Positions 1,831 through 64,000 of a DNA stretch of 64,000 nucleotides are shown in pieces; the stretch's first letter is position 1; every line of letters begins with the position of its first letter. Origin of the DNA: an uncultured bacterium (GTDB lineage Bacteria > Patescibacteriota > Minisyncoccia > Phycocordibacterales > Phycocordibacteraceae); assembly GCA_937879955.1 (NCBI GenBank), contig CALFMK010000001.1:5461-69460 (forward strand), written 5' to 3'. The notes under the pieces were generated by a model. That model was not told where the DNA came from, made no database searches, and worked only from the letters and a program-made list of their open reading frames with translations. Position numbers and translations under genes: made by a program.

Positions 1831-4719
1831 ATGAAGCAGGTCAAGAAGCGGAACGGGAGCATCGTCGACTTCGAGGCGACGAAGATTACTGACGCATTGC
1901 GAAAATCCTTCGCGTATTGCGAGGTCGCGATAGACGAGGCGGGGCTCGAGACGCTCACCAAGGGCGTCCTTGAGGACCTCTCGGCGAAGTTCGGCGACGA
2001 GGCGACTCCCTCCGTGGAGCATGTACAGGACCTGGTAGAGCTCGCGCTCATGGAGGCGGGCTACCTCACCGTGGCGAAGCACTACATCGTGTACCGCTAC
2101 GAGCATGCGAAGGTCCGCGAGGAGAAGAAGCAGGAGACCCTCGAGAAGATCGAGGAGGAGGGTCTCCTCATCACCACCGCGTCCGGGAAGCAGGAGCGCT
2201 TCAACGAGACCAAGCTCCGCCAGACCCTCGAGCATCTCGCGAAGGAGGACCAGATGGCGGGCATCGACATCGACCACATCCTCTCCCAGCTCAAGTACGA
2301 GCTCTATGAGGGTATGACCACGGCCGAGGTGGGGAAGGCGCTCATCATGGTGGTCCGCTCGATGATCGAGCGCGACCCGGCGTACTCGCGCCTGGCCGCC
2401 CGTCTCCTCCTGAACCGTCTCTACGCCGAGGTCTTCGGCACGGAGTTCGACAGCAAGAACCCGTACGATTCCGTCGAGCGCGTGTTCGAGGCGAACATGA
2501 AGCGGCTTGTGGCGAACGGCGACCTCGACGAGCGCATGGCCGAGTTCGACCTGAAGAAGCTCGCGCGCGCGATGAAGCTCGAGAACGACCAGCTCTTCGA
2601 GTACATGGGCCTCGAGATCATGATCAGCCGCTACTGCATGGAGGACCCGAAGGCCAAGCGCACCCTCGAGATCCCGCAGATGCTCTGGATGCGCGTGGCC
2701 ATGGGCCTCGCCATCGCCGAGAAGCCGGAGGACCGCGAGCGCGTGGCGCTCGAGTTCTACGACGCGCTCTCGAACTTCTACTACACCCCGGGCGGCCGCA
2801 CCCTCTTCCAGGCAGGCGCGAAGAAGGCGCAGCTTTCCAACTGCTTCCTCAACACCGTGCCTGATTCCCTCGAGGGCATCTTCAAGTCCATCTCGGACAA
2901 CGCCCAGTACCTGAAGTGGTCGGGAGGCACCGGCACCGACTGGACCCCGGTCCGCGCGACGGGTTCCTTCATCAAGGGTACCGGCGTGCCTTCCCAGGGC
3001 ATCGTGCCGTTCCTCAAGATCGCGAACGACGTGAACCTCGCCATCAACCGCTCCGGCAAGCGCCGCGGCGCCGGCTGCGTGTACCTCGAGACCTGGCACC
3101 ACGACATCGAGGACTTCCTCGAGCTCCGCAAGAACACCGGAGACGAGCGCCGCCGCACGCACGACATCAACACCGCGAACTGGATCCCGGACCTGTTCAT
3201 GAAGCGGGTGCGCGACAACGGCATGTGGACCCTCTTCAGCCCGAGCGAGGTGCCTGACCTCCACGACCTCTACGGCGCAGCCTTCGAGAAGCGCTACATG
3301 GAGTACGAGGCTATGGCGGACGCGGGCGGCATGGAGCTCTGGAAGCGCATCCCGGCGACCGACCTCTGGAAGAAGATGATCGGCATGCTCTTCGAGACGG
3401 GTCATCCATGGATCACCTGGAAGGACCCGATCAACGTCCGCTCCCCGCAGGATCACGCGGGCGTCGTGCACAACTCGAACCTCTGCACCGAGATCACCCT
3501 CAATACGAACGAGGACGAGACCGCCGTCTGTACGATCGGCTCCCTCAACTTCGCGAAGTTCGTCGTTACCGGCGAGGACGGCGTGGCTCGCTTCGACCAC
3601 GAGCTCGTGGCGCGCTACACGCGCATCGCGATCCGCATGCTCGACAACGTCATCGACCTCAACTTCTATCCGACGGAGGACGCACGTCGCGGCAACACCC
3701 GCCACCGTCCGGTGGGCCTCGGCGTCCGCGGCTACCATGACGCGCTCTACGGCCTGAACATCCAGTTCGACTCGCCTGAGGCGCTCAACTTCGCCGACGA
3801 GAGCATGGAGGTCGTCGCGTACTACGCGATCCTCGGCTCGTCCGAGCTCGCGAAGGAGCGCGGCACCTACTCGACCTACAAGGGATCGAAGTGGGACCGG
3901 GACATCTTCCCGCAGGACACCCTCGACCTCCTCGAGAAGGAGCGCGGCGAGTCCGTGAAGCTGAAGCGCGGCGGCAAGCTCGACTGGACCCCGGTCCGCG
4001 AGCACGTGAAGAAGTACGGCATGCGCAACAGCAACACCATGGCGATCGCGCCGACCGCGTCGACCGCGAACCTCGTCGGCTGCATCCCGTGCGTCGAGCC
4101 GATCTACAAGAACATCTACGTGAAGTCGAACAAGGAAGGGGAGTTCGTCGTCGTGAACAAGTACCTCGTCGAGGACCTCAAGAAGGCGAACCTCTGGAGC
4201 GCCGGCATGCTCAACCGCATCAAGTACGCGGACGGCAGCATCCAGGGCATCATCGAGATTCCGCGCGCGCTCCGCGAGAAGTACAAGGAGGTCTTCGAGA
4301 TCGACGGCAAGTGGCTCGTCGAGGCGGCGGCTCGTCGCGGCAAGTGGATCGACCAGTCCCAATCCCTGAACATCTTCTATAACGGAACCTCCGGAAAGGA
4401 CCTCTCCGACATCTACTTCCTCGCGTGGGAGATGGGCCTCAAGACGACCTATTACCTCCGCACCCTCGGCGCGTCCCAGGTTGAGAAGGCGACCGTCTCG
4501 ACCGTTGAGTACGGCTCGACCCACATCCGCGGAGGATCGACCCTCGCTGAGGTCGCTGCTGCGACCGTCGTAGAGGAGGTGGCCGTCGCGGCCCCGGTTA
4601 TCGAGGAGGTGCCCGCGCTCAGCGTCCCGAGCGGATTCTCGGCTGCGGAATGGCAGGCCAAGATGGCTCGCGTCGCCGCAGGCGAGGAGGCGGGCGTGTG
4701 CGAATCGTGCGAAAGCTAA
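1831..4719 (+). CDS. nrdA: ribonucleotide-diphosphate reductase large subunit, class Ia
   Basis: N-terminal ATP-cone (KRNGSIVDFEATKITDAL), a class I catalytic core (NLCTEI region) and a C-terminal Cys pair (CESCES). Followed by nrdB. Start moved from track position 1798 to the ATG at 1831, where the ATP-cone begins. Confidence 0.93.
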   Translation: MKQVKKRNGSIVDFEATKITDALRKSFAYCEVAIDEAGLETLTKGVLEDLSAKFGDEATPSVEHVQDLVELALMEAGYLTVAKHYIVYRYEHAKVREEKKQETLEKIEEEGLLITTASGKQERFNETKLRQTLEHLAKEDQMAGIDIDHILSQLKYELYEGMTTAEVGKALIMVVRSMIERDPAYSRLAARLLLNRLYAEVFGTEFDSKNPYDSVERVFEANMKRLVANGDLDERMAEFDLKKLARAMKLENDQLFEYMGLEIMISRYCMEDPKAKRTLEIPQMLWMRVAMGLAIAEKPEDRERVALEFYDALSNFYYTPGGRTLFQAGAKKAQLSNCFLNTVPDSLEGIFKSISDNAQYLKWSGGTGTDWTPVRATGSFIKGTGVPSQGIVPFLKIANDVNLAINRSGKRRGAGCVYLETWHHDIEDFLELRKNTGDERRRTHDINTANWIPDLFMKRVRDNGMWTLFSPSEVPDLHDLYGAAFEKRYMEYEAMADAGGMELWKRIPATDLWKKMIGMLFETGHPWITWKDPINVRSPQDHAGVVHNSNLCTEITLNTNEDETAVCTIGSLNFAKFVVTGEDGVARFDHELVARYTRIAIRMLDNVIDLNFYPTEDARRGNTRHRPVGLGVRGYHDALYGLNIQFDSPEALNFADESMEVVAYYAILGSSELAKERGTYSTYKGSKWDRDIFPQDTLDLLEKERGESVKLKRGGKLDWTPVREHVKKYGMRNSNTMAIAPTASTANLVGCIPCVEPIYKNIYVKSNKEGEFVVVNKYLVEDLKKANLWSAGMLNRIKYADGSIQGIIEIPRALREKYKEVFEIDGKWLVEAAARRGKWIDQSQSLNIFYNGTSGKDLSDIYFLAWEMGLKTTYYLRTLGASQVEKATVSTVEYGSTHIRGGSTLAEVAAATVVEEVAVAAPVIEEVPALSVPSGFSAAEWQAKMARVAAGEEAGVCESCES

Positions 4720-4767
4720 TAGCTGGCACAAAGGCTGACTTACAAGAAGCGTTAACACTCGCGAACT

Positions 4768-5802
4768 ATGCCCATCAACAAAGGTGCTGCTCCCGTGAAC
4801 ATTAACAACCGCAGGATCATCAACGGCGGAGACGCCGACGTGATGCAGCTCTACCCGATGAAGCACACGTTCGCGTGGGACGCGTACATGGCGGGTAACA
4901 GCAACCACTGGCTTCCGACGGAGATCAGCATGCAGCGCGACATCGAGCAGTGGAAGTCGACGACCGTGCTCTCGGACGACGAGCGCAGGGCGTTCGAGAC
5001 CGTGCTCGGATTCTTCACCACGGCCGATTCGATCGCCGCGAACAACATCGTGCTCGCCATCTACAAGCACATCACGAGCCCGGAGTGCCGCATGTACCTC
5101 CTGCGCCAGGGATACGAGGAGGCGATCCATACGCACGCGTACCAGTACATCGTGGAGTCGCTCGGCATGGACGAGTCGAAAATCTTCAACATGTACCGCG
5201 AGGTGGAGGCGATCTACAACAAGGACAACATGGTGCTGCGCCTCAACGAGGGCATCTTCTCGCCGGACTTCAAGACCGGCACGCTCGAGAACGACCAGCT
5301 CTTCGTGGAGAACCTCTGCGTCTTCTCGCTCATCATGGAAGGCATCTTCTTCTACAGCTCGTTCGCCGTCATGTTCGGCTTCCAGCGCCAGAACAAGCTC
5401 ACGGGCGCCGCGGAGCAGATCCAGTACATCATGCGCGACGAGTCCCAGCACCTTAACTTCGGCGTGAACCTGATTAACACGATCAAGGAGGAGCAGCCTG
5501 AGGTGTGGACCCCTGAGTTCCAGGAGCGCATCATCGGCATGGTGAAGCGCGCGGTGCAGCTCGAGTACGAGTTCGCTACCACGGTCTTCCCGAAGGGCAT
5601 CTTCGGCATGAACGCAGCAGGCTTCAAGCAGTACATCGAGCATATCGCCGACCGCCGTCTCGCGTCGGTAGGCCTTCCGGCGCAGTACAACGTCGAGAAC
5701 CCGTTCCCGTGGATGGGCGAGGCGGTGGACCTGAACAAGGAGAAGAATTTCTTCGAGACCCGCGTGACCGAGTACAAGACGGGCGGGCAGTTGAGCTGGT
5801 AA
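4768..5802 (+). CDS. nrdB: ribonucleotide-diphosphate reductase small subunit, class Ia
   Basis: Di-iron and radical-site motifs FFTTADSI (Asp ligand), EEAIHTHAYQY (ExxH plus Tyr at +7) and MRDESQHLNF. Confidence 0.93.
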   Translation: MPINKGAAPVNINNRRIINGGDADVMQLYPMKHTFAWDAYMAGNSNHWLPTEISMQRDIEQWKSTTVLSDDERRAFETVLGFFTTADSIAANNIVLAIYKHITSPECRMYLLRQGYEEAIHTHAYQYIVESLGMDESKIFNMYREVEAIYNKDNMVLRLNEGIFSPDFKTGTLENDQLFVENLCVFSLIMEGIFFYSSFAVMFGFQRQNKLTGAAEQIQYIMRDESQHLNFGVNLINTIKEEQPEVWTPEFQERIIGMVKRAVQLEYEFATTVFPKGIFGMNAAGFKQYIEHIADRRLASVGLPAQYNVENPFPWMGEAVDLNKEKNFFETRVTEYKTGGQLSW

Positions 5803-5824
5803 TCCTTCTTCCCGTGTTCAAAAA

Positions 5825-5851
5825 AGCGCTCCTTTACGGGAGTGCTTTGTT
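5825..5851 (+). terminator. intrinsic terminator after nrdB
   Basis: AGCGCTCC-TTTAC-GGGAGTGCT hairpin followed by TTGTT. Confidence 0.55.
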
Positions 5852-5863
5852 ATACTAATTCCG

Positions 5864-8257
5864 ATGAAACACGTGGGAAGGCTTCTGGTACTGCTTTTTG
5901 GTGCTTTTATCTTTCCGGGGATGGTCTCTGCAGCCACCTACTACGTTGATGCGACTCTCGGTAATAATTCGAATAACGGCACTGCCGCTAGTACCTCGTG
6001 GCAGACGCTCGCCAAAGTAAACGGCACTACATTCTTGGCTGGCGATAATATCCTCTTTAAGAAGGGAGAGACGTTTACTGGTGTGCTCGTAGCAGGCCAG
6101 AGTGGCACTAATGGGAATCCAATCACGTACGGCTCATATGGGGAGGGTGCGCGCCCAATTATTAATGCCGCTGGAAATAATCATGGATTCGACATCCGGA
6201 CAGGTAAGTCTTATATCAATGTAGCTGGCCTCGAAGTTCGAAACGCGACCTTGAACCAGTTTCTTCTGTTCGCTAATAGTTCGAATATATCGCACGTGTC
6301 CATCCAGGACTCGATAGCTGTAGGGGGAACGAGCGGATTCAATTTACAGGGACCAGGAACGTTTCTAGACATAACAATAAGTAGCAGTACCGCAAGCGGG
6401 TACGCGGGAGGTTCTGCGGTTGGTGTTCGCCTTGGTTCAGGAACCACTTTTGATGGAATTACTCTCGATGGAGTATCGGCGGCTTCTGGAAGTGGGTATC
6501 AGGGCTTCAGTACTGGATCGGGAACCTATTCAAATATTTCGATACTGAACTCATCGTTCACTGGGCATCCATCAAACGGTATTGCGTTTCTGTCTGCAAC
6601 GACGACTAACGTGGTCATTAGGGATACTGTAGCGAGCTTGAATGGAGGAAGTGGGATTTATTTCTTTGGTGTGAAGAGTGGAGTTGAGATTGATAACGTA
6701 ACAGCAAACTCAAATACCCAAAACGGAATAGGATTTGAAGCTGGTGCCATGAATCACATATCAATCGAAGACTCCGAGTTCAACAATAATGGACTTAATG
6801 GAATCGCACTTCTCGGAAGCGGAACCGGAACGTCAACAATCGTTTCTCGGTCGATTGCGTCTGGTAATGATAATGACGGTTTTAATATCTCTGGAAACTG
6901 GCAGAATGTCGTATTCGAGGAAGCGATCGCAAGTGATAATGGTGTAGATGGTATTGGCTCGAACGGAGACGGCTTCAGCTTTCACAACTCGAGCACCGGT
7001 GTAATTAGGAATAGCCAGGCACATAATAATTGGAAGTCAGCCGTAACAAACGTGAATACATCGAGCACGACGGTATATAACAACCTCTTTTCGCATGACA
7101 CCAACGGAACGAATGCCCTCATCACATTCCTAGACAGCGGAAGCCATGCTGCTTACAACAATGTGCTCTATAGCCCTGCACAGGTGGGGTATGGATTGGT
7201 CGCGAATGGTACAACGACACTCATAGCGAGGAATAATATTATTCAAGGTTTTCAGTACGGCGTATCGAAGGGGACGAATGCCTTCTTGGTAGAAGATTAC
7301 AATGACGTTTATGGAGCCAGTACGGCCTCCTACATTGGGCTTACTGGAGGTGTACATTCTATCTCTGTGAATCCAAAGTTTGTCGACGCTGAGGATGATG
7401 ATTTCCGACTACTTCAGTCCTCTCTTGCTATAAATGCAGGTACTACGACGCCCTATGTAACCGATTACCTCGGAAATCCACGCGTCGGCATTCCGGATAT
7501 GGGTGCATATGAGTATCAGGGAATACCTGATATAACAGCACCTTCTATCTACATAATTGCACCAGTGGATCCGGCTACGATATCTGGAACTGTAATTATT
7601 ACCGCATCAGCGACGGATGCTATCGGCGTAGAAGAAGTCGAATTTTTTCTAGATGGAGTATCGCTCGGGGATGATGCATCTGATCCTTATTCATTTTCAT
7701 GGAACTCATCTGCAGTTCCCGATGGCGTATACTCACTTCTCGCAGTTGCACATGATGCTGAAGGGAATTATGCCACCTCCTCTCCTGTCTCCGTCACGGT
7801 CTCGAATGTAATTCAGGAAGCGAGCCATCGCTCTGGTAAGTCCGGTCAGAGTGTCGTACGCACTATCTCTCCGCTCGCAGATTCTGTATTAAATGAAGGA
7901 GAAGCAAAGATATCATCAATAAATCGGCTCATACTCGATAATCGCGCACTTTTTATGCTTGCGCAGGAAAAGGGAATAGTAGTTCCTGAATTCATACTCA
8001 ATATGCTCGATCTCCCTTCGGGCTCGACCATTTCGATATTCTTTAATCGTCCTCTTGCGCTTGGAGCAACTGGCCCAGATGTCACTGCACTCCAGCAGAT
8101 TCTTAAGGATAAGGGCTTCTATGTTTATCAGGAGATAACCGGCTACTACGGACAAGCCACACTACAAGCTGTTGCTGACTACCAGAAGTCACTTGGGCTC
8201 GAATCTCTCGGGTATGTAGGTCCAGCAACAAGGGAAGCCTTGAATGCTGGGATTTGA
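5864..8257 (+). CDS. secreted parallel beta-helix repeat protein with Ig-like module and C-terminal peptidoglycan-binding domain
   Basis: Signal peptide MKHVGRLLVLLFGAFIFPGMVSA. About 400 aa of G/N/S/T-rich repeats (..NGI.F..) typical of right-handed beta-helices. Ig-like segment VEEVEFFLDGVSLGDDASDPYSFSWNSSAVPDGVYSLLAVAHDAEGN. PG_binding_1-like tail GATGPDVTALQQILKDKGFY..GYYGQATLQAVADYQKSLGL. Lies in the low-GC island. Confidence 0.8.
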   Translation: MKHVGRLLVLLFGAFIFPGMVSAATYYVDATLGNNSNNGTAASTSWQTLAKVNGTTFLAGDNILFKKGETFTGVLVAGQSGTNGNPITYGSYGEGARPIINAAGNNHGFDIRTGKSYINVAGLEVRNATLNQFLLFANSSNISHVSIQDSIAVGGTSGFNLQGPGTFLDITISSSTASGYAGGSAVGVRLGSGTTFDGITLDGVSAASGSGYQGFSTGSGTYSNISILNSSFTGHPSNGIAFLSATTTNVVIRDTVASLNGGSGIYFFGVKSGVEIDNVTANSNTQNGIGFEAGAMNHISIEDSEFNNNGLNGIALLGSGTGTSTIVSRSIASGNDNDGFNISGNWQNVVFEEAIASDNGVDGIGSNGDGFSFHNSSTGVIRNSQAHNNWKSAVTNVNTSSTTVYNNLFSHDTNGTNALITFLDSGSHAAYNNVLYSPAQVGYGLVANGTTTLIARNNIIQGFQYGVSKGTNAFLVEDYNDVYGASTASYIGLTGGVHSISVNPKFVDAEDDDFRLLQSSLAINAGTTTPYVTDYLGNPRVGIPDMGAYEYQGIPDITAPSIYIIAPVDPATISGTVIITASATDAIGVEEVEFFLDGVSLGDDASDPYSFSWNSSAVPDGVYSLLAVAHDAEGNYATSSPVSVTVSNVIQEASHRSGKSGQSVVRTISPLADSVLNEGEAKISSINRLILDNRALFMLAQEKGIVVPEFILNMLDLPSGSTISIFFNRPLALGATGPDVTALQQILKDKGFYVYQEITGYYGQATLQAVADYQKSLGLESLGYVGPATREALNAGI

Positions 8258-8284
8258 ATTCTTCTAGAGGACGGCGATAATAAA

Positions 8285-8500
8285 CTATATATAACGTTTA
8301 ATTATCTCAACACTGCCCAAGGTCAGTATGTCTCTACCGACCACTCCGTTCTTACGGGTACTAATTACTTTAATAGCTTCTCGTTCGAGAAAGTACATTA
8401 CCGCAGTGTTCAGAATTAAATTCCTATCCCTCTCCTCTGTAACTAGTAAATCAATCGTTTCAAGGACATCCTCTGGAATATCAAGATTAATTTTAGACAC
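8285..8500 (-). CDS. ribbon-helix-helix (CopG-like) small DNA-binding protein
   Basis: KINLDIPEDVLETIDLLVTEERDRNLILNTAVMYFLERE follows the RHH strand-helix-helix pattern. GTG start, no obvious SD, 23 nt after the upstream ORF. Low GC. Confidence 0.55.
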   Translation of the reverse strand: MSKINLDIPEDVLETIDLLVTEERDRNLILNTAVMYFLEREAIKVISTRKNGVVGRDILTLGSVEIIKRYI

Positions 8501-8523
8501 TGTAAATTCTAAAAATTAAAGCT

Positions 8524-9003
8524 CTAGCTGAACTTCAGCATTTTCGTTTCTAAATTTTCCAGCAATATCTGATAACGCGCATCGAGAGGATTTAACTTGT
8601 AACGTATTTGACGTATAACGATTTTGTATAATTTCCCAACTTGCCCTCGCGTTTCTATACGAATACGGAAGGCTGCTGTCATTCCTGTTGGTATCTTGCA
8701 GTAAACTATCGTGCCTAGGGCAACTTGAGTTATGTTCTCTCCTCGGCATGAAATATCAGTTTTTAATATTGAACTCTGAGCCGTTCCTTCAATCTGATAT
8801 ACAAAACCGGTTGGCTTCTTGCCCGAGGCAACCGAAAGAGGAACGTATAGATCTTTCCGAGGAGCAGTTATGTTAATGATAAATATAAAATTCCCGATTA
8901 CGCGGTCAGGTCCATTAGGAATTCGCGTTCTCCTAAGATTCTCTTCAGTGTCTTTAATATCGACCAAGACATCTTTCTCCGGTGGAATGATTGGTTTATC
9001 CAT
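8524..9003 (-). CDS. hypothetical protein (low-GC island)
   Basis: 159-aa ORF co-oriented with and immediately upstream of the RHH gene. I recognise no motif. Confidence 0.5.
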   Translation of the reverse strand: MDKPIIPPEKDVLVDIKDTEENLRRTRIPNGPDRVIGNFIFIINITAPRKDLYVPLSVASGKKPTGFVYQIEGTAQSSILKTDISCRGENITQVALGTIVYCKIPTGMTAAFRIRIETRGQVGKLYKIVIRQIRYKLNPLDARYQILLENLETKMLKFS

Positions 9004-9116
9004 ATAATCAGATAGCTCTTTGTATAAGATCAGTATGGGTTTAGGAATATGAAAAATATCTCAAAATTGCATAAAGTAATTATGGAGACAGTGGCAGAAA
9101 GCTGATCTAGTCACTT

Positions 9117-9148
9117 CGAAAAGAAGCACCGGACCACATGTCCGGTGC
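9117..9148 (-). terminator. intrinsic terminator (minus strand) after the 9182-9484 gene
   Basis: GCACCGGAC-ATGTG-GTCCGGTGC on the minus strand, followed by TTCTTTTCG. Confidence 0.6.
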
Positions 9149-9181
9149 TAACTAATATGAATCCTATAAGAAAGAGGCAAA

Positions 9182-9484
9182 TTACTTCTTACCCCAGCGC
9201 CATGATGGCTCTTCGCCAAAGCGTAGGCAGATCCGGTAGAGGGAATAGGAAAGAAGGGCGATAACGCCTGTGAACTCTAAGACTCCGAAAATGATGTCCC
9301 GGGCCCCTACATGGCTCTCGACCGCGGCACCGACCCATCCGAAGAATATAAGGAAGGCGAAGGTGAAGAGGAGGGCATAGAAGACCGTCACGGCCCATCC
9401 CTGCCATGAGACAGGGAACCAGCCCCACCCGAATTCCTTCGCCCGGAACCACAGCTTCCGGGCCTTCCTTTTGTGTTCGCTCAT
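9182..9484 (-). CDS. small integral membrane protein
   Basis: 100 aa with two or three hydrophobic helices (WAVTVFYALLFTFAFLIFFGWVGAAV, IIFGVLEFTGVIALLSYSLY). Confidence 0.6.
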   Translation of the reverse strand: MSEHKRKARKLWFRAKEFGWGWFPVSWQGWAVTVFYALLFTFAFLIFFGWVGAAVESHVGARDIIFGVLEFTGVIALLSYSLYRICLRFGEEPSWRWGKK

Positions 9485-9643
9485 GGGCTTATAATACTGT
9501 AAATAGGCCGTTTTATCCAGGCTTGACTCCTAAAAATGAGGGTCTCCTGAACATGAAGAATTGGCTTTCCACGTCTTGACAGTGGTTGTCAACCCTGCTA
9601 CTATGGGCCTTGTCAGGCCGTCCGCAAGGGCGGTCTTTCATTT

Positions 9644-10258
9644 ATGCCAGTTATTGCAGTAGTAGCCCTTATGGGCTTCCTGTTTTTACCGGGTAGCGCA
9701 GGAGCGCCGGCACAAGCGGAGACGATTTCCGCGCCGGTCGCGATAGCGGGGGCGGCTGAAGAGCCTTCCAAACGCCTGGCCACCTCGAAAGAGGCGGCCC
9801 GGACCTACCAGGTAAGTATGACCGCTTACAATGCCGTTCCCGGCCAGACGGATGCCAACCCATTCGTCACCGCGAGCGGCATGGCCTCGAATCACGAGGT
9901 TGTGGCTGCGCGATCGCGCGATATGGCGGCTGAACTCCCGTTCGGCACCGTCATACGCTTCGAGCGCTCGACGAAGGACACGCCTTCGTGCCGTTTCGGC
10001 GAAGTCGAGCACTTGATGGGGTACCGCATCATCGCGGACACCATGCATGAGCGCTGGAGCCACAAGGTGGACGTGCTCTTCGACCAGACCGATACGGTCA
10101 TGGTCGAGGGACGCATCGTCAACCCGGCGCTCGCCCTCGGTATCTGCGACGACGTGACGATCACGGTCGTGGGAACTGTCGATATGACGGATCCGCCGAC
10201 CACGCAGGCCGAGCTCGCGGCGATGTTCGCCACGCCGACCTACGCGATAGCGAAATAA
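9644..10258 (+). CDS. secreted 3D-domain (RlpA/MltA-like double-psi beta-barrel) cell-wall protein
   Basis: Signal peptide, then YQVSMTAYNAVPGQTDANPFVTASG, the hallmark of 3D-domain proteins. TTGACA-N17-TACTAT promoter at about 9583-9611. Confidence 0.75.
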   Translation: MPVIAVVALMGFLFLPGSAGAPAQAETISAPVAIAGAAEEPSKRLATSKEAARTYQVSMTAYNAVPGQTDANPFVTASGMASNHEVVAARSRDMAAELPFGTVIRFERSTKDTPSCRFGEVEHLMGYRIIADTMHERWSHKVDVLFDQTDTVMVEGRIVNPALALGICDDVTITVVGTVDMTDPPTTQAELAAMFATPTYAIAK

Positions 10259-10330
10259 ATGAATCTCCTTCATGAAGAGTCCTGCTCGTAAGAGCCGGGC
10301 TCTTCTTACGTTTGGTATACTGAACCCAGT

Positions 10331-11578
10331 ATGAACATCACCCCGAAGATCCTCGTCGCAGCCGCGCTCATGGCGACGTTCGCGGTCGCAGGCGCTATGC
10401 CCGCTACCGCGCTCGCGGCAAGTAGCAGGTCCTCCTCAAAATCCTCGATAGAGATATCGGGATGGATCCCGTACTGGAGGACGGAGCTCGGCACGAAGGA
10501 CGCGAAGGCGCACATCTCGCAGATGGCAGAGGTGAACCCGTTCGGCTACACGGTGACGAGTACCGGGAATCTGAACGACGCCATGAAGATCGGCGGCGCC
10601 GACTGGCAGAGCCTCATCGCAGCCGCGAAGAAGAAGGGCGTGAAGGTCATCCCGACGGTCATGTGGAGCGATACGGCGTCCATCTATAGCGTCCTCTCGA
10701 ACCCGGTCACGCGCGCGTCGCACGTGAAGGCTATCGCGAAGGCCGTTAAGGACAACGGCTTCGACGGCATCGACATCGACTACGAAGGCAAGACCGCGGA
10801 GACCCGCGTCTACTTCTCTGCGTTCCTCGCCGAGCTCAAGGCCGAGCTCGGCCGCAGCAAGCAGCTCGACTGCACCATCGAGGCCCGCATGCCGCTCGAG
10901 GCGCGCTTCTCGGGAACTCCTCCGGCGAACATCGAGTACGCGAACGACCTCCCGGAGATCAACAAGAGCTGCGATCGCGTGCGCATCATGACCTACGACC
11001 AGCAGACCGCAGACCTGCAGCTGAACGCATCGGCACGCCGCGCAGGCGAGATCTATGCGCCTGTGGCGGACGTGAAGTGGGTGGAGAAGGTCGTTGAGTA
11101 CATGGGCAAGGATATCGACAAGAAGAAGATGGTCCTCGGCGTCCCGACGTACGGCTATATCTACCAGATCATGCCGAACTCGGATGGCAGCGGCTACGGC
11201 TACACGAAGCTCGAGGCCTTCAATCCGGCGTACGCGACGCAGCTCGCGAAGGAGCTCGGCATCACGCCGGAGCGCAACCGCGCGGGCGAGATGTCCTTCA
11301 GCTACGTGCCGAAGGACCAGCCGGCCTCGCTCCCGACGCAGAGCGCGCTCTCGCGGCTCGCGCCGCGGAGCACCTCGTCGGCGAGCCTCGCTGCCGCAGG
11401 TGCCCTCGCGCTTGCGAAGAGCAAGAAGCAGCAGGCCCCGTTCGAGTACATCACCTGGAGCGACGCGGGCGCGATCAAGCAGAAGGTGGACCTCGCGAAG
11501 AAGATGAAGCTCGCGGGCGTGGCGGTCTTCAAGATCGACGGAGGATCCGACCCGAAGATGTGGGACGTGCTGAAGTAG
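10331..11578 (+). CDS. secreted glycoside hydrolase family 18 protein
   Basis: Signal peptide and the GH18 catalytic motif FDGIDIDYEG. TATACT lies 9 nt upstream of the ATG. Confidence 0.85.
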   Translation: MNITPKILVAAALMATFAVAGAMPATALAASSRSSSKSSIEISGWIPYWRTELGTKDAKAHISQMAEVNPFGYTVTSTGNLNDAMKIGGADWQSLIAAAKKKGVKVIPTVMWSDTASIYSVLSNPVTRASHVKAIAKAVKDNGFDGIDIDYEGKTAETRVYFSAFLAELKAELGRSKQLDCTIEARMPLEARFSGTPPANIEYANDLPEINKSCDRVRIMTYDQQTADLQLNASARRAGEIYAPVADVKWVEKVVEYMGKDIDKKKMVLGVPTYGYIYQIMPNSDGSGYGYTKLEAFNPAYATQLAKELGITPERNRAGEMSFSYVPKDQPASLPTQSALSRLAPRSTSSASLAAAGALALAKSKKQQAPFEYITWSDAGAIKQKVDLAKKMKLAGVAVFKIDGGSDPKMWDVLK

Positions 11579-11622
11579 AACGTGAGACACGAGAAAAGCC
11601 CCTGCGCGAGCGGGGGCTTTTC

Positions 11623-11970
11623 CTATTCCGTCGTTTGCTGGATGTCCTGCGTCTGTTCGTCGAGCATGTCGATGAGTGCGGCGTAATAGGTCGGACGCGT
11701 AGCAACCTTCTCTTCCGTAGCTGCGTTAATCGCGCGTATCGCGTCCTCGAGCGTGAATCCGGCAATAGCGGCCCGCGTCTCTTCCTTGCGTGCATCGCTC
11801 CAGAGGGACATATCGGCGCCGGGCCCGTACGTCTCGCCGACCATTCGTCGCACGCTCGCTTCCTTCGCCATGTCCAGAGCGCCGGTCTCTGCGGCCGGAC
11901 TCTCGGAGAGGTTGTCATTCGCTGCGGCATTCGGGAACTGCAGGATCTTTCCGAACGGTCTTCCTTCCAT
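11623..11970 (-). CDS. hypothetical protein
   Basis: Track ORF 11623-12060 trimmed to the internal ATG (MEGRPFGKILQFPN...) because the upstream part overlaps the VanY gene. TAGGAT lies 10 nt upstream. Confidence 0.5.
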   Translation of the reverse strand: MEGRPFGKILQFPNAAANDNLSESPAAETGALDMAKEASVRRMVGETYGPGADMSLWSDARKEETRAAIAGFTLEDAIRAINAATEEKVATRPTYYAALIDMLDEQTQDIQQTTE

Positions 11971-11992
11971 GGGTATGTAAATCCTAGTAGTG

Positions 11993-12874
11993 CTAATCGA
12001 ACAGCTCCGCAAGGTACTCGTCGATGGTGCGCTGGTCGAGGTCGTAGAACCACGCGTCATCGTCGTGCAGCCGCTCGGCGAGGTCCCTGCCTACGAAGCG
12101 CCAGTGCCACGGCTCGTACTGGTAGTACGTGTTGCCCTTGGGGTAGGAGAGCACAAAGCCGTACTTCCAGGCGTTCTTCGTGAGCCATTCGTACTCCTCG
12201 GTCTTGTCGAAGCCAGCGAACGTTCCGCCCACCGTCGTCGTCGTGAAGTCGACGGCGGTGCCGAGCTGGTGCTCGGAGTAGCCCTGATCTGCGGAGAACG
12301 AATTGGCTCCGGACCCGTACTTCACGGTGTAGCCGGACTTGAGCGACGCCTGGTTCGCGAACGAGCGGTACGAGGACGCCACCTTGAGGTCGAGGCCGTC
12401 CTCCTTCGCGTCGTCGAGCAGGTCCTCGAGGAACGGGTCTACGTCGGCATGTATCTCGTACGCGCGTCCCTCCTGGAACGCGTACGCGGCATCGATAACG
12501 GTCAGTCTCGACGGGACGTAGTTCTCGTTCAGGAAGTAGACCTTCGAGTACTTCGCGAGCAGCTCGGGATCGGTCTTCGCGAGCTTCTCGAGGGTCCCTA
12601 CGGTCCCCGAGAGGTCCTTGAGCTGGCTCTCGAACTTACCGTTCTTCTGCTGCTCGCGCCGGAGCTCCCCGGCGAGGCTGATGCTCTCCTCGGTCTTCTC
12701 GCCGAGCTTTCCGGTAAGCTCGGCCTCCTTCGCCTCGGCCGTCGCACGGGCCTCGGTAAGCGCGCTCTTCGCCGCCGCCAGCTCTGACGAGAGGGAATAG
12801 AGGCCGTACATCGCGAACCCTGCGAGCGCGAGGACGACGAGGCCGATGAGTGCGAGAAGGGTGCTGCGGGACAT
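11993..12874 (-). CDS. D-alanyl-D-alanine carboxypeptidase, VanY/M15B family, membrane-anchored with coiled coil
   Basis: N-terminal TM helix, a coiled-coil segment, then M15B motifs SSYRSFANQ, SEHQLGTAVD and EPWHWRF. Confidence 0.85.
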   Translation of the reverse strand: MSRSTLLALIGLVVLALAGFAMYGLYSLSSELAAAKSALTEARATAEAKEAELTGKLGEKTEESISLAGELRREQQKNGKFESQLKDLSGTVGTLEKLAKTDPELLAKYSKVYFLNENYVPSRLTVIDAAYAFQEGRAYEIHADVDPFLEDLLDDAKEDGLDLKVASSYRSFANQASLKSGYTVKYGSGANSFSADQGYSEHQLGTAVDFTTTTVGGTFAGFDKTEEYEWLTKNAWKYGFVLSYPKGNTYYQYEPWHWRFVGRDLAERLHDDDAWFYDLDQRTIDEYLAELFD

Positions 12875-12897
12875 ATGGCTATTCTCTCACAGGTCCC

Positions 12898-14979
12898 CTA
12901 TGCGCGCTCGATAGTAGCGAGAATCTCCTCGATCTCAGCGAGCCCCGCCGGCTTCGTGAGATGGTGGTCGAACCCGGCCTTCCGGGCCTTCTGTATGTCG
13001 GATTCCTGGCCGTAGCCGGTGAGTGCGACGAGCGTCGCGGCGAACCCATCAGCGCGGAGCGCCGTCGCGACCTCGTAGCCCTCCATGTCCGGCAGGCCGA
13101 TGTCGAGCAGGATCACGTCAGGACGGAACGCGGGCGCGCGGGCGATAGCCTCCTCGCCGGTATATGCGGTTTCGGTACGGTTCCCGCGGAGCGTGAGGAG
13201 CTTCGCGAGCGCGTCGGCCGCGGCGCGGTTGTCGTCCACGACGAGGATGCGGAACCCGTCACGCGCCTTTGGCGCTGCTACGGCCCGTGCCCGCACCCCG
13301 ACGGCTCCCTCCTGCGGGAGCGGGATGCGGACGGTGAACCGGCTCCCGTGTCCGGGCCCGTCGCTCTCGGCCTCGATCGTGCCGTCGTGCATCTCCACCA
13401 GGTTCTTGGTAAGCGAGAGGCCGATGCCGAGACCTGCGTGCATCTTGCCGGGCTGCTCGATCTGGAAGAACGGTTCGAAGACGTGCGCAAGGAGCGCGGC
13501 GTCCATGCCGATGCCGGTGTCCGTCACCGTGACGACGGCCTCGGTCCCGTCCGTGCGTGCCACGAGCTCGATACGGCCTCCGGGCTCGGTGTACTTCGCC
13601 GCGTTGTTGAGGAGGTTCACGAACACCTGCTCGAGACGCACGGGATCGGCCTCGAGGCGGATCGCCTCGTCCGGCATGTCGATCGAGAGCTCGTGCTTGA
13701 GGGACGCCATGAGCGGCGCCACGGTACGCTGGCTCCTTGCGAGCACGGTCTGGAGGTCGATGTGCTCCTTCTGGAGGGAGAGCTTCTCGCGGGTGATGCG
13801 CGAGATGTCGAGCAGGTCGTCGAGGAGATGCCGCATGGTCTTCAGGTGGTCGGTCATGCCTTCGGCGAGCTCGCTCGAGCGAGCGGCATCCGGCCGCTCG
13901 AGCTTCATGATCTCGAGCGAGGACATGAGCGGGGCGAGCGGGTTGCGCAGCTCGTGCGCGAGGGTGGCGATGAAGCGGCTCTTCGCCTCGTCCTCACGGC
14001 GGATCCGCTCCACGGCGTCCTCGAGCCTGCGCACGTTGTCGCGCAGGACGTTCGCGGTGTCCTTGCGCTCCTCCGCGATGGAGACGAGCACGAGGAATAT
14101 GAGGGAGAGCACGATCACGAATATCTCGGTCTGCAGGAGGTCGTATCCGAGCGTCCCTGTACCGGACGCGAGGCTGAGGAACGCGGTGCCGCCGAGCGCG
14201 AGCGCGGCGTTCAGGAAGAGCGCGAGCGTCATGAAGCGCGGGCCGATGCGCAGCGCGATCCAGAGGAACGGGATGAGGATAAGGTATACGAGCGGCACCT
14301 GCGCGATCTCGCGGTATGGGGTCCAGTACAGGAGGAGGCCGGTCCCGACGACGGCCGCTATCGCGACCCAGGCCTCGACGAGCTCGCCCTTCGTGCGCTG
14401 GAACCTGAAGCGCGGCAGCCACTTGATGAGGAGCGGCGTCACGACGAGCATGGAGAGGATGTGCCCGATCCACCACGGGATGAAGGTACCCATGAGGCCG
14501 CGGGGCATGGCGCGCTCGGCCAGGGTGAAGGTGAGGGTTCCGAGCGCCGGGATGAGGATGGTGACGAAGAGCGCGACGAACACGAACATGAGGGTGTCGG
14601 GAGCCTTCGAGAAGGTGTTGCGGTATCCGAGCTTCCGGAGGAGCCAGGTGCCCACGCTTGCCTGTATGGCGTTCGCCGCCGCAAGCCCGAGCGCCACGAA
14701 CAGCACGCTCCCGTTCAGGAGCTGGTGCGCGAGAGCTGCCAGGAATACCGCAGGCCAGAGCGCGATGCCGCCGAGGAGGAGTCCGCCGAGCGCGATGCCG
14801 GATGCCGGCCAGATGAGGGCCGGGGCGGTCGGGACGGAGGAATAGATATGCGAGAAGACCTGGGCGCAGAACAGGTACGCGCAGAACAGCAGCGCCATGT
14901 AGAGGAGCGACCGTCCGGAATAGGGGAAGCGAGGCATAGACGGGTGGATGGCGTTCTCCCTAGGATACATTCTTTTCAT
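12898..14979 (-). CDS. hybrid sensor histidine kinase (multi-TM MASE1-like sensor, HisKA, HATPase, C-terminal receiver)
   Basis: About 300 aa of TM helices. H-box LAHELRNPLAPL. ATP-lid boxes NLLNNAAKYT, DTGIGM and GLGIGL. Receiver ILVVDDN..ILLDIGLPDMEG..LTKP. Start could be an internal Met (14970 or 14937). Confidence 0.85.
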   Translation of the reverse strand: MKRMYPRENAIHPSMPRFPYSGRSLLYMALLFCAYLFCAQVFSHIYSSVPTAPALIWPASGIALGGLLLGGIALWPAVFLAALAHQLLNGSVLFVALGLAAANAIQASVGTWLLRKLGYRNTFSKAPDTLMFVFVALFVTILIPALGTLTFTLAERAMPRGLMGTFIPWWIGHILSMLVVTPLLIKWLPRFRFQRTKGELVEAWVAIAAVVGTGLLLYWTPYREIAQVPLVYLILIPFLWIALRIGPRFMTLALFLNAALALGGTAFLSLASGTGTLGYDLLQTEIFVIVLSLIFLVLVSIAEERKDTANVLRDNVRRLEDAVERIRREDEAKSRFIATLAHELRNPLAPLMSSLEIMKLERPDAARSSELAEGMTDHLKTMRHLLDDLLDISRITREKLSLQKEHIDLQTVLARSQRTVAPLMASLKHELSIDMPDEAIRLEADPVRLEQVFVNLLNNAAKYTEPGGRIELVARTDGTEAVVTVTDTGIGMDAALLAHVFEPFFQIEQPGKMHAGLGIGLSLTKNLVEMHDGTIEAESDGPGHGSRFTVRIPLPQEGAVGVRARAVAAPKARDGFRILVVDDNRAAADALAKLLTLRGNRTETAYTGEEAIARAPAFRPDVILLDIGLPDMEGYEVATALRADGFAATLVALTGYGQESDIQKARKAGFDHHLTKPAGLAEIEEILATIERA

Positions 14980-14996
14980 GAAGCCTACATGAAAGG
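14977..14996. promoter_or_regulatory. second copy of the CATGAAG direct-repeat box (CATGAAGCCTACATGAAAGG)
   Basis: 17/20 identity and the same orientation as 1051-1070. Lies at the 5' end of the hybrid kinase gene, in the divergent region shared with the SET gene. Confidence 0.4.
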
Positions 14997-15044
14997 CCCG
15001 CGCCTTGCTACGGAGCCGTGCTTCGCCGTACTATGGGCTCCACT

Positions 15045-15455
15045 ATGACAGCAAAAGGAAAGTACGTACCCGGCGAGTGGACGCTCGCCGTGAAGCGGTC
15101 GAGCGCCGGCCTCGGCCTGTTCGCGGGCGAGCGCATCCCGAAGGGCGCCTGCGTCATCGAGTATGTCGGACGCACGGTATCGAAGGAGGAGAGCGAGACG
15201 AGCAAGAGCAAGTACCTCTTCGAGATCTCGAAGAACAAGACCATCGACGGGAAGCCGAAGATAAACAAGGCGGGGTACATCAACCATGCCTGCAATCCGA
15301 ACTGCGAGACGGAGATAGCGAAAGGCCGCATCTTCGTGATGGCGATCAAGGACATAAAGCCCGGAGACGAACTCACCTACGACTACGGGAAGGAGTACTG
15401 CCTCGAGCACTGCGTCCCGTGCCGCTGCAGCGCGAAGAAGCACCTGTACGGATAG
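15045..15455 (+). CDS. SET-domain protein (putative lysine methyltransferase)
   Basis: GLGLFAGERIPKGACVIEYVG, NHACNPNC, ELTYDY and a Cys-rich tail CLEHCVPCRC. Start set to the ATG at 15045, 10 nt after TACTAT. The track start at 15018 is in the same frame. Confidence 0.8.
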   Translation: MTAKGKYVPGEWTLAVKRSSAGLGLFAGERIPKGACVIEYVGRTVSKEESETSKSKYLFEISKNKTIDGKPKINKAGYINHACNPNCETEIAKGRIFVMAIKDIKPGDELTYDYGKEYCLEHCVPCRCSAKKHLYG

Positions 15456-62648: not shown

Positions 62649-63014
62649 ATGCCTTGGCCACGAGTGGGGGACTGGTTGGAGAGGATCAGTAAATCGAACG
62701 CGCTCTATCCGCTCCTCATAGCGCTATGCCTCTCCGTCGCGTTCGCCGGTACGGTCATAGCATTCGTACCGAACGTTCTCATCCAGGTCATCGTCTGTAT
62801 ACCAGTGCTGATGATCGTATTCCAGATCGTCCGGAGCTTCGAGTACTTCTCCAAGAACAACCCGGACATGCTCCGGACCGAGACGCATGTGATCCAGCAG
62901 CGCGTCCTCGAGATGATGGGGGACGAGTCCGGCGTCGTGCACGCGACTGCGGCCGACCTGGTAGCCATAACGAATCCTGCGAATACCCAGGATAGAATCG
63001 AAAACCATGGCTAA
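62649..63014 (+). CDS. membrane protein, hypothetical
   Basis: 121 aa with two TM helices (LYPLLIALCLSVAFAGTVIAFV, IQVIVCIPVLMIVFQIV). TATAGT box upstream. Confidence 0.5.
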   Translation: MPWPRVGDWLERISKSNALYPLLIALCLSVAFAGTVIAFVPNVLIQVIVCIPVLMIVFQIVRSFEYFSKNNPDMLRTETHVIQQRVLEMMGDESGVVHATAADLVAITNPANTQDRIENHG

Positions 63015-63294
63015 CATCTATCTTATCGCCGTAAAGAATGATGATTCCTTCAATGTTAAGGAATTCCATAAATTTGTTAAGGAAAAACTCTATCCTGAGC
63101 ATGTGGGCGGTTGGTGGCATTACGTTTCTGGACCAACCTATCTCGTTAAGTCGGAAACACTTGATGCTAAGGGAATATCCGAAATCATCACCCAGTTCAC
63201 TGGCAAGCAGAGTCATCTTGTTACCAAGATCGATCTAGAAGATATCGAAGGAATGTTGCCGGCTCGCGCATGGGACTGGCTCGGACTCTACTAA
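63007..63294 (+). CDS. hypothetical protein (low-GC island)
   Basis: 95 aa. Overlaps the previous gene by 8 nt. AT-rich codon usage. Confidence 0.5.
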   Translation: MANIYLIAVKNDDSFNVKEFHKFVKEKLYPEHVGGWWHYVSGPTYLVKSETLDAKGISEIITQFTGKQSHLVTKIDLEDIEGMLPARAWDWLGLY

Positions 63295-63512
63295 TGGAGC
63301 ACATCACACTTCAAGAGTATGAAGATACTGATGGAACGAGGATGGAGCTCGGTATCCAGTATGACGAAGCTACCTACCAGTTCATCGTTTCCGGAACGCC
63401 AATTAATGGCAATGGGGCGTATGAGGCAGGGAAGACGCCCATTTTCGCATCCTTCCCGACCCTCGAAGAAGCAAGGATGTTCGTAGAAAAGAGTTTCACT
63501 AAGATCTCCTAG
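63294..63512 (+). CDS. hypothetical protein (low-GC island)
   Basis: TAATG stop/start overlap with the previous gene. MEHITLQEYEDTDG... (72 aa). The track start at 63270 is in the same frame. Confidence 0.45.
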   Translation: MEHITLQEYEDTDGTRMELGIQYDEATYQFIVSGTPINGNGAYEAGKTPIFASFPTLEEARMFVEKSFTKIS

Positions 63513-63571
63513 GAATCTTCGGTTTATTTTTTCTCCAGGATTCCTTTATCCGGGGCTGGTAGGGTTCGGAT

Positions 63572-64000
63572 ATGGCAATGGTAGAAGAAAATCTGATACT
63601 TTCCCTCTTGAAGAAAGAGTTTCCGAAGGCGCCCGAACAGGTATTGAGACAATGGCTTGCTCCAGCTGTTAAGAAGGACGGTTGGCCACCGACCGGACTT
63701 CATTGGATCGGTGTATTGGGGAAAAGGGATCTGGATTTCTGGAAAAAGAAGGAATGGTCCCTTAAGGACGTTAACCTCGAAGAAGCTTCCTGGGATTACG
63801 ATACTAGGTACGCGGCAGAAAAGGTGCTCGAAGGGTTTGTTGCATCTCAAGAATCTGAAGTCCTCTTCTCTGATTCTCATGAGAAGCAGAAGGTCATACG
63901 AGCACTTAAGCACCTTTCAGTCGAAGGAAGCTTCTTCGAGCCGATAACCGCATTTCTCGTAGAAAACGAATCTGGTGGCTACTCGCTCGTAGACGGATTC
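63572..64000 (+). CDS. hypothetical protein, N-terminal fragment (runs off window end); possibly ParB/Srx-like
   Basis: Open frame from the ATG at 63572 to the window end (143 codons), so it is absent from the track. It ends ...GGYSLVDGF, reminiscent of the ..LIDG(H/F)HR motif of ParB-like nuclease domains, but the motif is cut by the window edge. Confidence 0.4.
   Translation, partial: MAMVEENLILSLLKKEFPKAPEQVLRQWLAPAVKKDGWPPTGLHWIGVLGKRDLDFWKKKEWSLKDVNLEEASWDYDTRYAAEKVLEGFVASQESEVLFSDSHEKQKVIRALKHLSVEGSFFEPITAFLVENESGGYSLVDGF

Follow-up and report, generated by a model that had tools for sequence, protein, structure and literature searches.

The genomes of the candidate phyla radiation (CPR), or Patescibacteria, are tiny, and these bacteria are believed to rely on other cells. 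Replacement flexible genomic islands have been described in aquatic prokaryotes, in which peaks of mostly synonymous substitutions at the island boundaries represent a signature of homologous recombination (Lopez-Perez, Martin-Cuadrado and Rodriguez-Valera, 2014; PMC4033161). In 125 groundwater Patescibacteria genomes, genomic islands, transferred genes and prophages combined were found to number in the hundreds, with most of the individual gene-transfer events occurring between Patescibacteria (PMC12455944). Here we describe a 3.4-kb low-GC islet in a 64,000-nt stretch (the window) of contig CALFMK010000001.1, from the high-GC, Paceibacteria-like genome of an uncultured member of the Patescibacteriota. 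The islet lies between two convergent genes, nrdB (ribonucleotide reductase small subunit) and mem100 (a 100-amino-acid [aa] predicted membrane protein), extending from one stop codon to the other, and encodes a 797-aa predicted secreted beta-helix protein, a 159-aa protein and a 71-aa open reading frame (ORF). It is a strain-variable cassette at a fixed site, a kind of island already known in other bacteria, and we consider it likely to be a miniature replacement-type flexible genomic island that is swapped by homologous recombination in its conserved flanks.

The region between positions 5803 and 9150 has a GC content of 44.7%, versus 63.7% for the rest of the window. In 500-bp windows, GC content is at or below 0.496 throughout the islet, versus a mean of 0.638 (standard deviation 0.033, minimum 0.528) outside it, and the tetranucleotide distance of the islet to the window average is 0.65, versus 0.18 ± 0.025 for background windows of the same size. 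The GC contrast is located at synonymous sites: GC content at third codon positions (GC3) is 0.92 in nrdA and nrdB and 0.89–0.90 in the GH18 and VanY genes, versus 0.43, 0.36 and 0.38 in the islet genes for the 797-aa, 71-aa and 159-aa products, respectively. The left edge is the nrdB stop codon (5802), with the drop in GC complete within approximately 100 nt; the right edge is the mem100 stop codon (9182, minus strand), with GC rising again across the 3′ part of mem100. The region is compositionally foreign. A first-pass annotation of this DNA had proposed a low-GC island with sharp transitions between nrdB and a membrane-protein gene, to be checked by sliding-window GC and tetranucleotide statistics; the deviation is large in both, and the breaks fall at the two stop codons. 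The terminator that it had placed at the right-hand transition (9117–9148) does exist as a hairpin (9125–9149), which lies on the minus strand and ends mem100 rather than any gene of the island. The hairpin that follows nrdB (approximately 5825–5846) lacks the T-run stipulated in the terminator scan.

The content of the islet diverges sharply from that of a close relative at the same site. L081, a contig of 17.8 kb that was sequenced in an independent run and is probably of the same species, has the same gene order as the window (nrdA, nrdB, beta-helix, 71-aa, 159-aa, mem100, p204, GH18, VanY), and its islet is likewise AT-rich (38–51% GC). The backbones of the two differ by 2–3% at the nucleotide level across approximately 10 kb, and aa identity is 99.5% for NrdA, 99.4% for NrdB and 100% for mem100; nucleotide divergence reaches 30–45% in the beta-helix gene and 12–24% in the genes for the 159-aa and 71-aa products. 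Divergence jumps directly after the nrdB stop codon and returns to 0.5–2% exactly at the mem100 stop codon, and the mem100 terminator sits within the diverged block, in a region that is 61% identical to L081. Synonymous divergence (dS) between the window and L081 is 0.72–0.84 for the two small islet genes versus 0.09–0.19 for the flanking genes, with a ratio of nonsynonymous to synonymous divergence (dN/dS) of 0.11–0.13 for the two small genes. The beta-helix alleles share 45% identity by BLAST (55% over MAFFT-aligned columns) and differ in domain content, in that Big_7 is present in the window allele and not in the L081 allele. In addition, the last 400 bp of nrdB are 6–8% diverged from L081, versus 0.5–3.5% upstream, and almost all of these substitutions are synonymous.

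The distances between alleles of the 159-aa gene are discordant with those of the backbone. Two short contigs from two other runs, L089 and L094, each show the 159-aa gene beside mem100. Between the window and L081, the pairwise proportion of synonymous differences (pS) is 0.088 in mem100 and 0.463 in the 159-aa gene; the corresponding values are 0.485 and 0.255 for the window and L089, and 0.439 and 0.578 for the window and L094. The window allele of the 159-aa gene is nearer to that of the more distant L089 than to that of the near-identical L081, and the window and L081 alleles differ as much as do those of other species in the clade. Since a difference in substitution rate cannot give such a pattern, we infer that the cassette has been exchanged between lineages.

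In more distant relatives, the interval between nrdB and mem100 is variable in content. NrdB relatives are almost all metagenome-assembled genomes (MAGs) of Patescibacteria/CPR (labelled Parcubacteria, Paceibacterota or Kaiserbacteria), and in three of them (L002, L003 and L091) mem100 keeps its synteny with p204, GH18 and VanY. In L002 (NrdB 91%; 47% GC) the interval is nearly empty, with a terminator and one small ORF in approximately 400 bp, whereas a type IV pilus operon occupies that of L003 (7182–13947), together with a HicA toxin, and that of L091 (NrdB 94%; 8387–15384), together with Fic/DOC plus a helix-turn-helix (HTH) protein and with a DUF4258/DUF2283 pair. The two pilus operons encode a PilB-like ATPase, a PilC-like platform protein and several pseudopilins. 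On the 3.5-kb contig L088, from which the mem100 side is missing, a beta-helix gene is followed by a HigB-like/RHH_1 pair. The three genes of the islet are carried at none of 80 species-representative nrdB loci. Conservation of an equally AT-rich, syntenic island in all relatives, which the first-pass annotation had named as a finding that would count against acquisition, is confined to the immediate clade, in which L081, L089 and L094 carry all or part of the islet; it does not extend to L002, L003 and L091. The GC3 of nrdB is 0.92 here versus 0.59–0.63 in the closest NrdB relatives (L001, L002 and L091; 91–94% aa identity), which suggests that the host lineage became GC-rich and that the cassette keeps the composition of the relatives. 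This implies that the rise in GC in the host lineage was large and fairly recent.

None of the ORFs in 5803–9181 encodes an integrase, transposase or recombinase, and no recombinase ORF was found in L081 or L088. The nearest tRNA genes are at 18.8 and 40.2 kb, and no RNA family was identified in or beside the islet. No repeat family spans the islet edges, and there is no target-site duplication: when the nrdB tail is aligned against the islet, the window scores 20 and L081 scores 16, versus shuffle means of approximately 19.5, which is chance level. Thus, the absence of an integrase, transposase or tRNA gene noted in the first-pass annotation is borne out, and the target-site duplications that it had suggested looking for do not rise above chance in the window or in L081. 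In L088, the beta-helix gene lies between two direct copies of the nrdB 3′ end (L088 positions 21–65 and 2473–2526), which form a 55-bp repeat with a perfect stretch of 39 nt, and we infer that the nrdB tail acts as a recombination anchor there.

Two other readings were considered and rejected. Self-BLAST of the islet against the 64-kb window returned the self-match only; with no repeat of the islet present, hypervariation by a diversity-generating retroelement (DGR) was rejected, although no search was made for a reverse-transcriptase gene. A prophage remnant was likewise dismissed, given that the PHROG matches cover the peptidoglycan (PG)-binding domain only, as in endolysin cell-wall-binding modules; among GenBank phages there was one match to the beta-helix protein, at 13% coverage, and none to the 159-aa protein.

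We propose that divergent versions of the cassette would circulate among related lineages, and that they would be swapped in by homologous recombination with the conserved flanks as arms; nrdB is the probable left homology arm and mem100 the probable right homology arm. Because the conserved flanks would serve as arms, an integrase, a tRNA gene or a target duplication would not be needed. The location between two convergent stop codons would allow insertion without disruption of a promoter, and the 159-aa/71-aa module occupies the position at which related genomes have toxin–antitoxin pairs. The present cargo, which probably came from lower-GC relatives, would retain the GC content of approximately 45–50% that is typical of most relatives, with the lineage's own genes having risen to a GC3 of approximately 0.9. 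The locus is best read as a fixed hotspot at which alleles have been replaced repeatedly, and not as the site of one ancient insertion. The suggestion in the first-pass annotation of an "old or unconventional acquisition" is therefore half right: with no integrase, transposase, tRNA gene or target-site duplication, the acquisition is fairly called unconventional, but "old" is not supported, given islet GC3 values of 0.36–0.43 without drift toward the approximately 0.9 of the host, the divergence of the L081 allele, and 159-aa distances that contradict the backbone.

Several observations weigh against replacement by homologous recombination, or against parts of it. The peak of substitutions at the boundary occurs on the left side only (0.5–2% divergence on the right), and similar peaks occur elsewhere in the backbone, such as 15.8% at 11601–11800. 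The same-clade sample comprises a single contig that is probably of the same species (17.8 kb), along with short fragments of 1.25 and 3.1 kb. A near-identical cassette was found in no potential donor genome; at full length, the beta-helix protein has no match above 62%. The case for a surface or glycan role of this protein consists of domain matches. In L086 and L087, the 159-aa homologues occur by themselves, which weakens the interpretation of the small genes as a toxin–antitoxin pair. Strong GC3 bias may also depress backbone dS and thereby inflate the ratio of islet to flank dS; however, this cannot account for the discordant pS distances.

One alternative, which corresponds to the "old acquisition" of the first-pass annotation, is that the clade ancestor received the islet in one early insertion and that the islet then evolved unusually fast in situ; diversifying selection on the surface protein, and relaxed or unbiased synonymous evolution in the AT-rich genes, would account for the divergence. 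The adjacency of mem100 and the 159-aa gene, kept in four clade genomes (the window, L081, L089 and L094), is what such an insertion would leave behind, and the extreme GC3 bias of the backbone could have exaggerated the dS contrast. We nevertheless regard this scenario as unlikely: the small genes are under purifying selection and yet have 4–8 times the backbone dS; the beta-helix alleles of what is probably one species do not have the same domains; the window is nearer to L089 than to L081 in the 159-aa gene, contradicting the backbone; and a GC3 of approximately 0.4 shows no drift toward host composition in a genome with a GC3 of 0.92. Less probable still is that the region is native and has an ancestral low GC content, its divergent alleles being held by balancing selection without recombining and so spared a recombination-linked rise in GC. 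This would accommodate the deep, sharp-edged allele divergence, the strong rise in GC of the lineage (nrdB GC3 of 0.92 versus 0.59–0.63, with islet GC resembling that of the relatives in question) and the fact that another high-GC lineage, L083, also keeps a beta-helix homologue in a low-GC block. However, the lower-GC relatives do not have these genes here, the interval being nearly empty in L002 and occupied by pilus and toxin–antitoxin genes in L003 and L091, and the discordant distances point to transfer between lineages.

The 55-bp nrdB-tail repeat in L088, which resembles an attL/attR pair or the product of a Campbell-type single crossover, raises the possibility that the islet is instead the remnant of a site-specific element that targeted the nrdB 3′ end, with its recombinase lost or acting in trans. 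This appears quite improbable with no integrase, recombinase or transposase ORF in the islets of the window, L081 or L088, a nrdB-tail repeat at chance level in both the window and L081, and a right edge that is a stop codon rather than an att-like sequence. A chimera of assembly or binning, in which a fragment from a low-GC organism was joined into a high-GC contig, might be suspected from the abrupt compositional break and from the derivation of the sequence from metagenomic CPR assemblies, but it is scarcely credible: the nrdB, beta-helix, 71-aa, 159-aa, mem100 architecture was assembled independently from a different run in L081, the junction of mem100 with the 159-aa gene recurs in two further runs, and the junctions lie at gene ends with the ORFs intact. 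Replacement by homologous recombination remains our preferred explanation. As a bolder and rather doubtful extension, the islet could represent a trans-species polymorphism, in which a surface protein for interaction with hosts or phages of an episymbiotic CPR bacterium is combined with an unrecognised addiction, immunity or regulatory pair (the 159-aa protein and a lineage-specific DNA-binding 71-aa protein) that would stabilise each cassette, and which would have stayed AT-rich as its divergent alleles escape a GC-raising, recombination-linked process.

Table 1. Features of the islet and its two flanking genes (positions in the window).
Feature	Position	Strand	Remarks
nrdB (ribonucleotide reductase small subunit)	4768..5802	+	Left flank; Pfam Ribonuc_red_sm, E=2.7e-88
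Left junction	5803..5863	+	Hairpin (~5825-5846) after nrdB, then -10-like TATACT (5851-5856), 7 nt ahead of the beta-helix ATG; read from the sequence
Gene for 797-aa secreted beta-helix protein (predicted)	5864..8257	+	Pfam Beta_helix, Big_7, PG_binding_1; signal-peptide-like N-terminus
71-aa ORF	8285..8500	-	GTG start; downstream of the 159-aa gene; possible ribbon-helix-helix protein, unproven
Gene for 159-aa protein	8524..9003	-	Uncharacterised family; predicted Ig-like beta-sandwich; no signal peptide
Conserved non-coding block, 55 nt	9032..9086	-	Upstream of the 159-aa gene; near-invariant in the window, L081 and L089
Intrinsic terminator of mem100	9125..9149	-	Terminator scan: 10-bp stem with 7 GC pairs, T tail
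mem100 (100-aa predicted membrane protein)	9182..9484	-	Right flank; 100% aa and 98% nucleotide identity to L081

The three ORFs of the islet (Table 1) are those listed in the first-pass annotation, and no others were found. The beta-helix gene (47% GC, GC3 as above) is the main and most variable cargo. Its product matches the Pfam domains Beta_helix (1e-13, above the cut-off), Big_7 (1.6e-18) and, at the C-terminus, PG_binding_1 (1e-13), and has an N-terminus (MKHVGRLLVLLFGAFIFPGMVSA/AT) that, as read from the sequence, is signal-peptide-like; these matches uphold its earlier description as a beta-helix protein. The first approximately 95 mature residues resemble beta-helix glycosidases (PDB 7v6m, 6e-12; lacto-N-biosidase model LnbX, 1.7e-10). 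There are also partial matches to alginate lyase chains, and similarity to GH136 is limited to the approximately 95 N-terminal residues. Based on these domains, the protein is probably anchored to the organism's own cell wall via PG_binding_1, and probably acts at the surface by binding or cleaving glycans. Such a variable protein would be expected if interaction with phages or host cells imposes selection on an exposed structure.

The closest full-length homologue of the beta-helix protein is P0002 from genome L082 (62% identity by BLAST, 64% over aligned columns), which is encoded at a different locus of a CPR genome of approximately 50% GC and has native composition there (48.9% GC in the gene, 50.1% in its surroundings). 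The window allele is nearer to P0002 than to its syntenic counterpart in L081. Exact-sequence queries with NrdB, the beta-helix protein and the 159-aa protein of the window retrieved no record. No orthologous housekeeping genes common to L082 and the window were found within the 64 kb. A further homologue, of 904 aa (GC3 0.44), occurs in L083, a high-GC CPR genome (approximately 62% GC; ddl GC3 0.81), within an 8-kb block (5183–13416) of 36–53% GC that lies between ddl and yceG and also contains zinc-ribbon, TPR and Trypsin_2 genes. In both the window and L088, a -10-like TATACT is located approximately 7–10 nt upstream of the ATG of the beta-helix gene, without a Shine-Dalgarno sequence, and TATACT is likewise present in the region upstream of the beta-helix gene in L081; this suggests a transcript that is leaderless or has a very short leader.

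The family of the 159-aa protein comprises 176 or more unnamed proteins, of which the few with source names are from Parcubacteria, Paceibacterota or Minisyncoccia MAGs, and has the near-invariant motif SIASGKKPTGFVYQIEGT. The AlphaFold model is a confident (predicted local distance difference test [pLDDT] score of 88) all-beta, immunoglobulin (Ig)-like sandwich. There were no matches to the protein in Pfam, PADLOC, PHROGs or NCBIfam, in line with its first-pass description as an unknown, no meaningful match to viral structures by Foldseek, and no relatives in IMG/VR or among GenBank phages.

The 71-aa ORF is a real gene under purifying selection, because its dN/dS relative to L081 is 0.13. 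Its only known homologues are P0221 and P0222, each adjoining a 159-aa gene, so that the gene is known from three genomes in all; a profile search against 1.84 billion representatives returned only a known homologue. Its earlier label as a CopG-like ribbon-helix-helix (RHH) protein is unproven: Pfam gives no significant match, the best PDB match, to a CopG-family regulator across residues 1–41, is non-significant (E=0.79), and the AlphaFold2 model (pLDDT 57), with helices at 10–22 and 26–49, is compatible with RHH without being diagnostic.

The 159-aa and 71-aa genes are small, co-oriented, AT-rich and 23 nt apart, and are probably co-transcribed. The 55-nt block upstream of the 159-aa gene barely varies among the window, L081 and L089, in contrast to the 25–46% difference at synonymous sites of the adjacent gene; it matches no Rfam family and, judged by its position and conservation, is probably a promoter or operator. 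A regulatory or addiction-type function for the pair is possible. A type II toxin–antitoxin system with an RHH antitoxin is not supported by the partner gene: the 159-aa protein matches no toxin family and its homologues occur alone in L086 and L087.

Other compositional or divergence anomalies occur in these contigs. In L081, an extra 1.2-kb low-GC islet (3983–4790; 41–45% GC) with genes for 97-aa and 153-aa products is absent from the window, where it corresponds to an insertion at approximately 10268–10270, between p204 and GH18. The contig table gives the 153-aa product as PF27709 (UCP014422), whereas a Pfam scan gave no match at E≤0.01. This islet amounts to a further insertion/deletion polymorphism, no more than 1.3 kb away from the first. 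The divergence peak at 11601–11800 (15.8% relative to L081) lies between the GH18 and VanY genes, with the surrounding backbone at 2–5%. At the far end of the window, a second low-GC stretch (63001–64000, running off the window end; approximately 46% GC, with a trough of 34% at 63001–63100) starts abruptly after a 121-aa ORF and contains small ORFs of 95 and 80 aa without Pfam matches; it may be another flexible islet.

The locus provides a clean case, resolved to the base pair, of probable integrase-free cassette replacement in a CPR/Patescibacteria genome, in which the swapped beta-helix protein could plausibly determine attachment, the foraging of glycans or susceptibility to phages. Because their GC contrast is extreme, such cassettes are easy to spot in this lineage; the contrast also flags a marked recent rise in the GC content of the host, and the cassette draws attention to the 159-aa family, which is widespread in the group and entirely uncharacterised. 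Current concepts are left unchanged; what is added is a new group, and a smaller scale, for a known type of island.

Among known systems, integrase-mediated islands resemble the islet in being blocks of foreign composition at the 3′ end of a conserved gene, and the L088 insert is flanked by a repeat of the 3′ end of its target gene as in such islands; unlike these, the window has no integrase, tRNA gene or direct repeats, and both edges are convergent stop codons. The 159-aa/71-aa pair is like type II toxin–antitoxin pairs (HigB/RHH, HicAB, Fic/DOC+HTH, DUF4258/DUF2283) in being small and co-oriented, in occupying the same position as such pairs in relatives, and in the weak match of the 71-aa N-terminus to a CopG-family regulator (E=0.79), but differs in that the 159-aa protein is a predicted Ig-like sandwich with no toxin or defence family match and with partnerless homologues. 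The beta-helix protein is comparable to right-handed beta-helix, carbohydrate-active proteins of the pectate-lyase-like and GH136-like types, based on Beta_helix repeats recognised by the Pfam profile (1e-13). In the survey of groundwater Patescibacteria, islands were predicted by composition across many MAGs, with neither same-site allele replacement nor this locus described; the transfers reported there are matched here by closest cargo homologues in CPR-type genome contexts (PMC12455944).

Compared with the replacement islands of aquatic prokaryotes, the islet is far smaller, with three genes in 3.4 kb as against glycosylation clusters that span tens of kb, and carries a single predicted secreted beta-helix protein and a two-gene module rather than polysaccharide biosynthesis. 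It also differs in its CPR/Patescibacteria host, in a GC contrast of approximately 19 percentage points (0.5 in GC3), and in a substitution peak on the left side only. What it shares with them is a fixed position between conserved genes with content that diverges from strain to strain, and the lack of an integrase or tRNA gene. Its cargo may likewise be linked to exposed structures, to judge by the domains, and the raised synonymous substitutions at its left boundary may correspond to the peaks described for such islands; in both cases, homologous recombination in the flanks is the proposed means of exchange (Lopez-Perez, Martin-Cuadrado and Rodriguez-Valera, 2014; PMC4033161).

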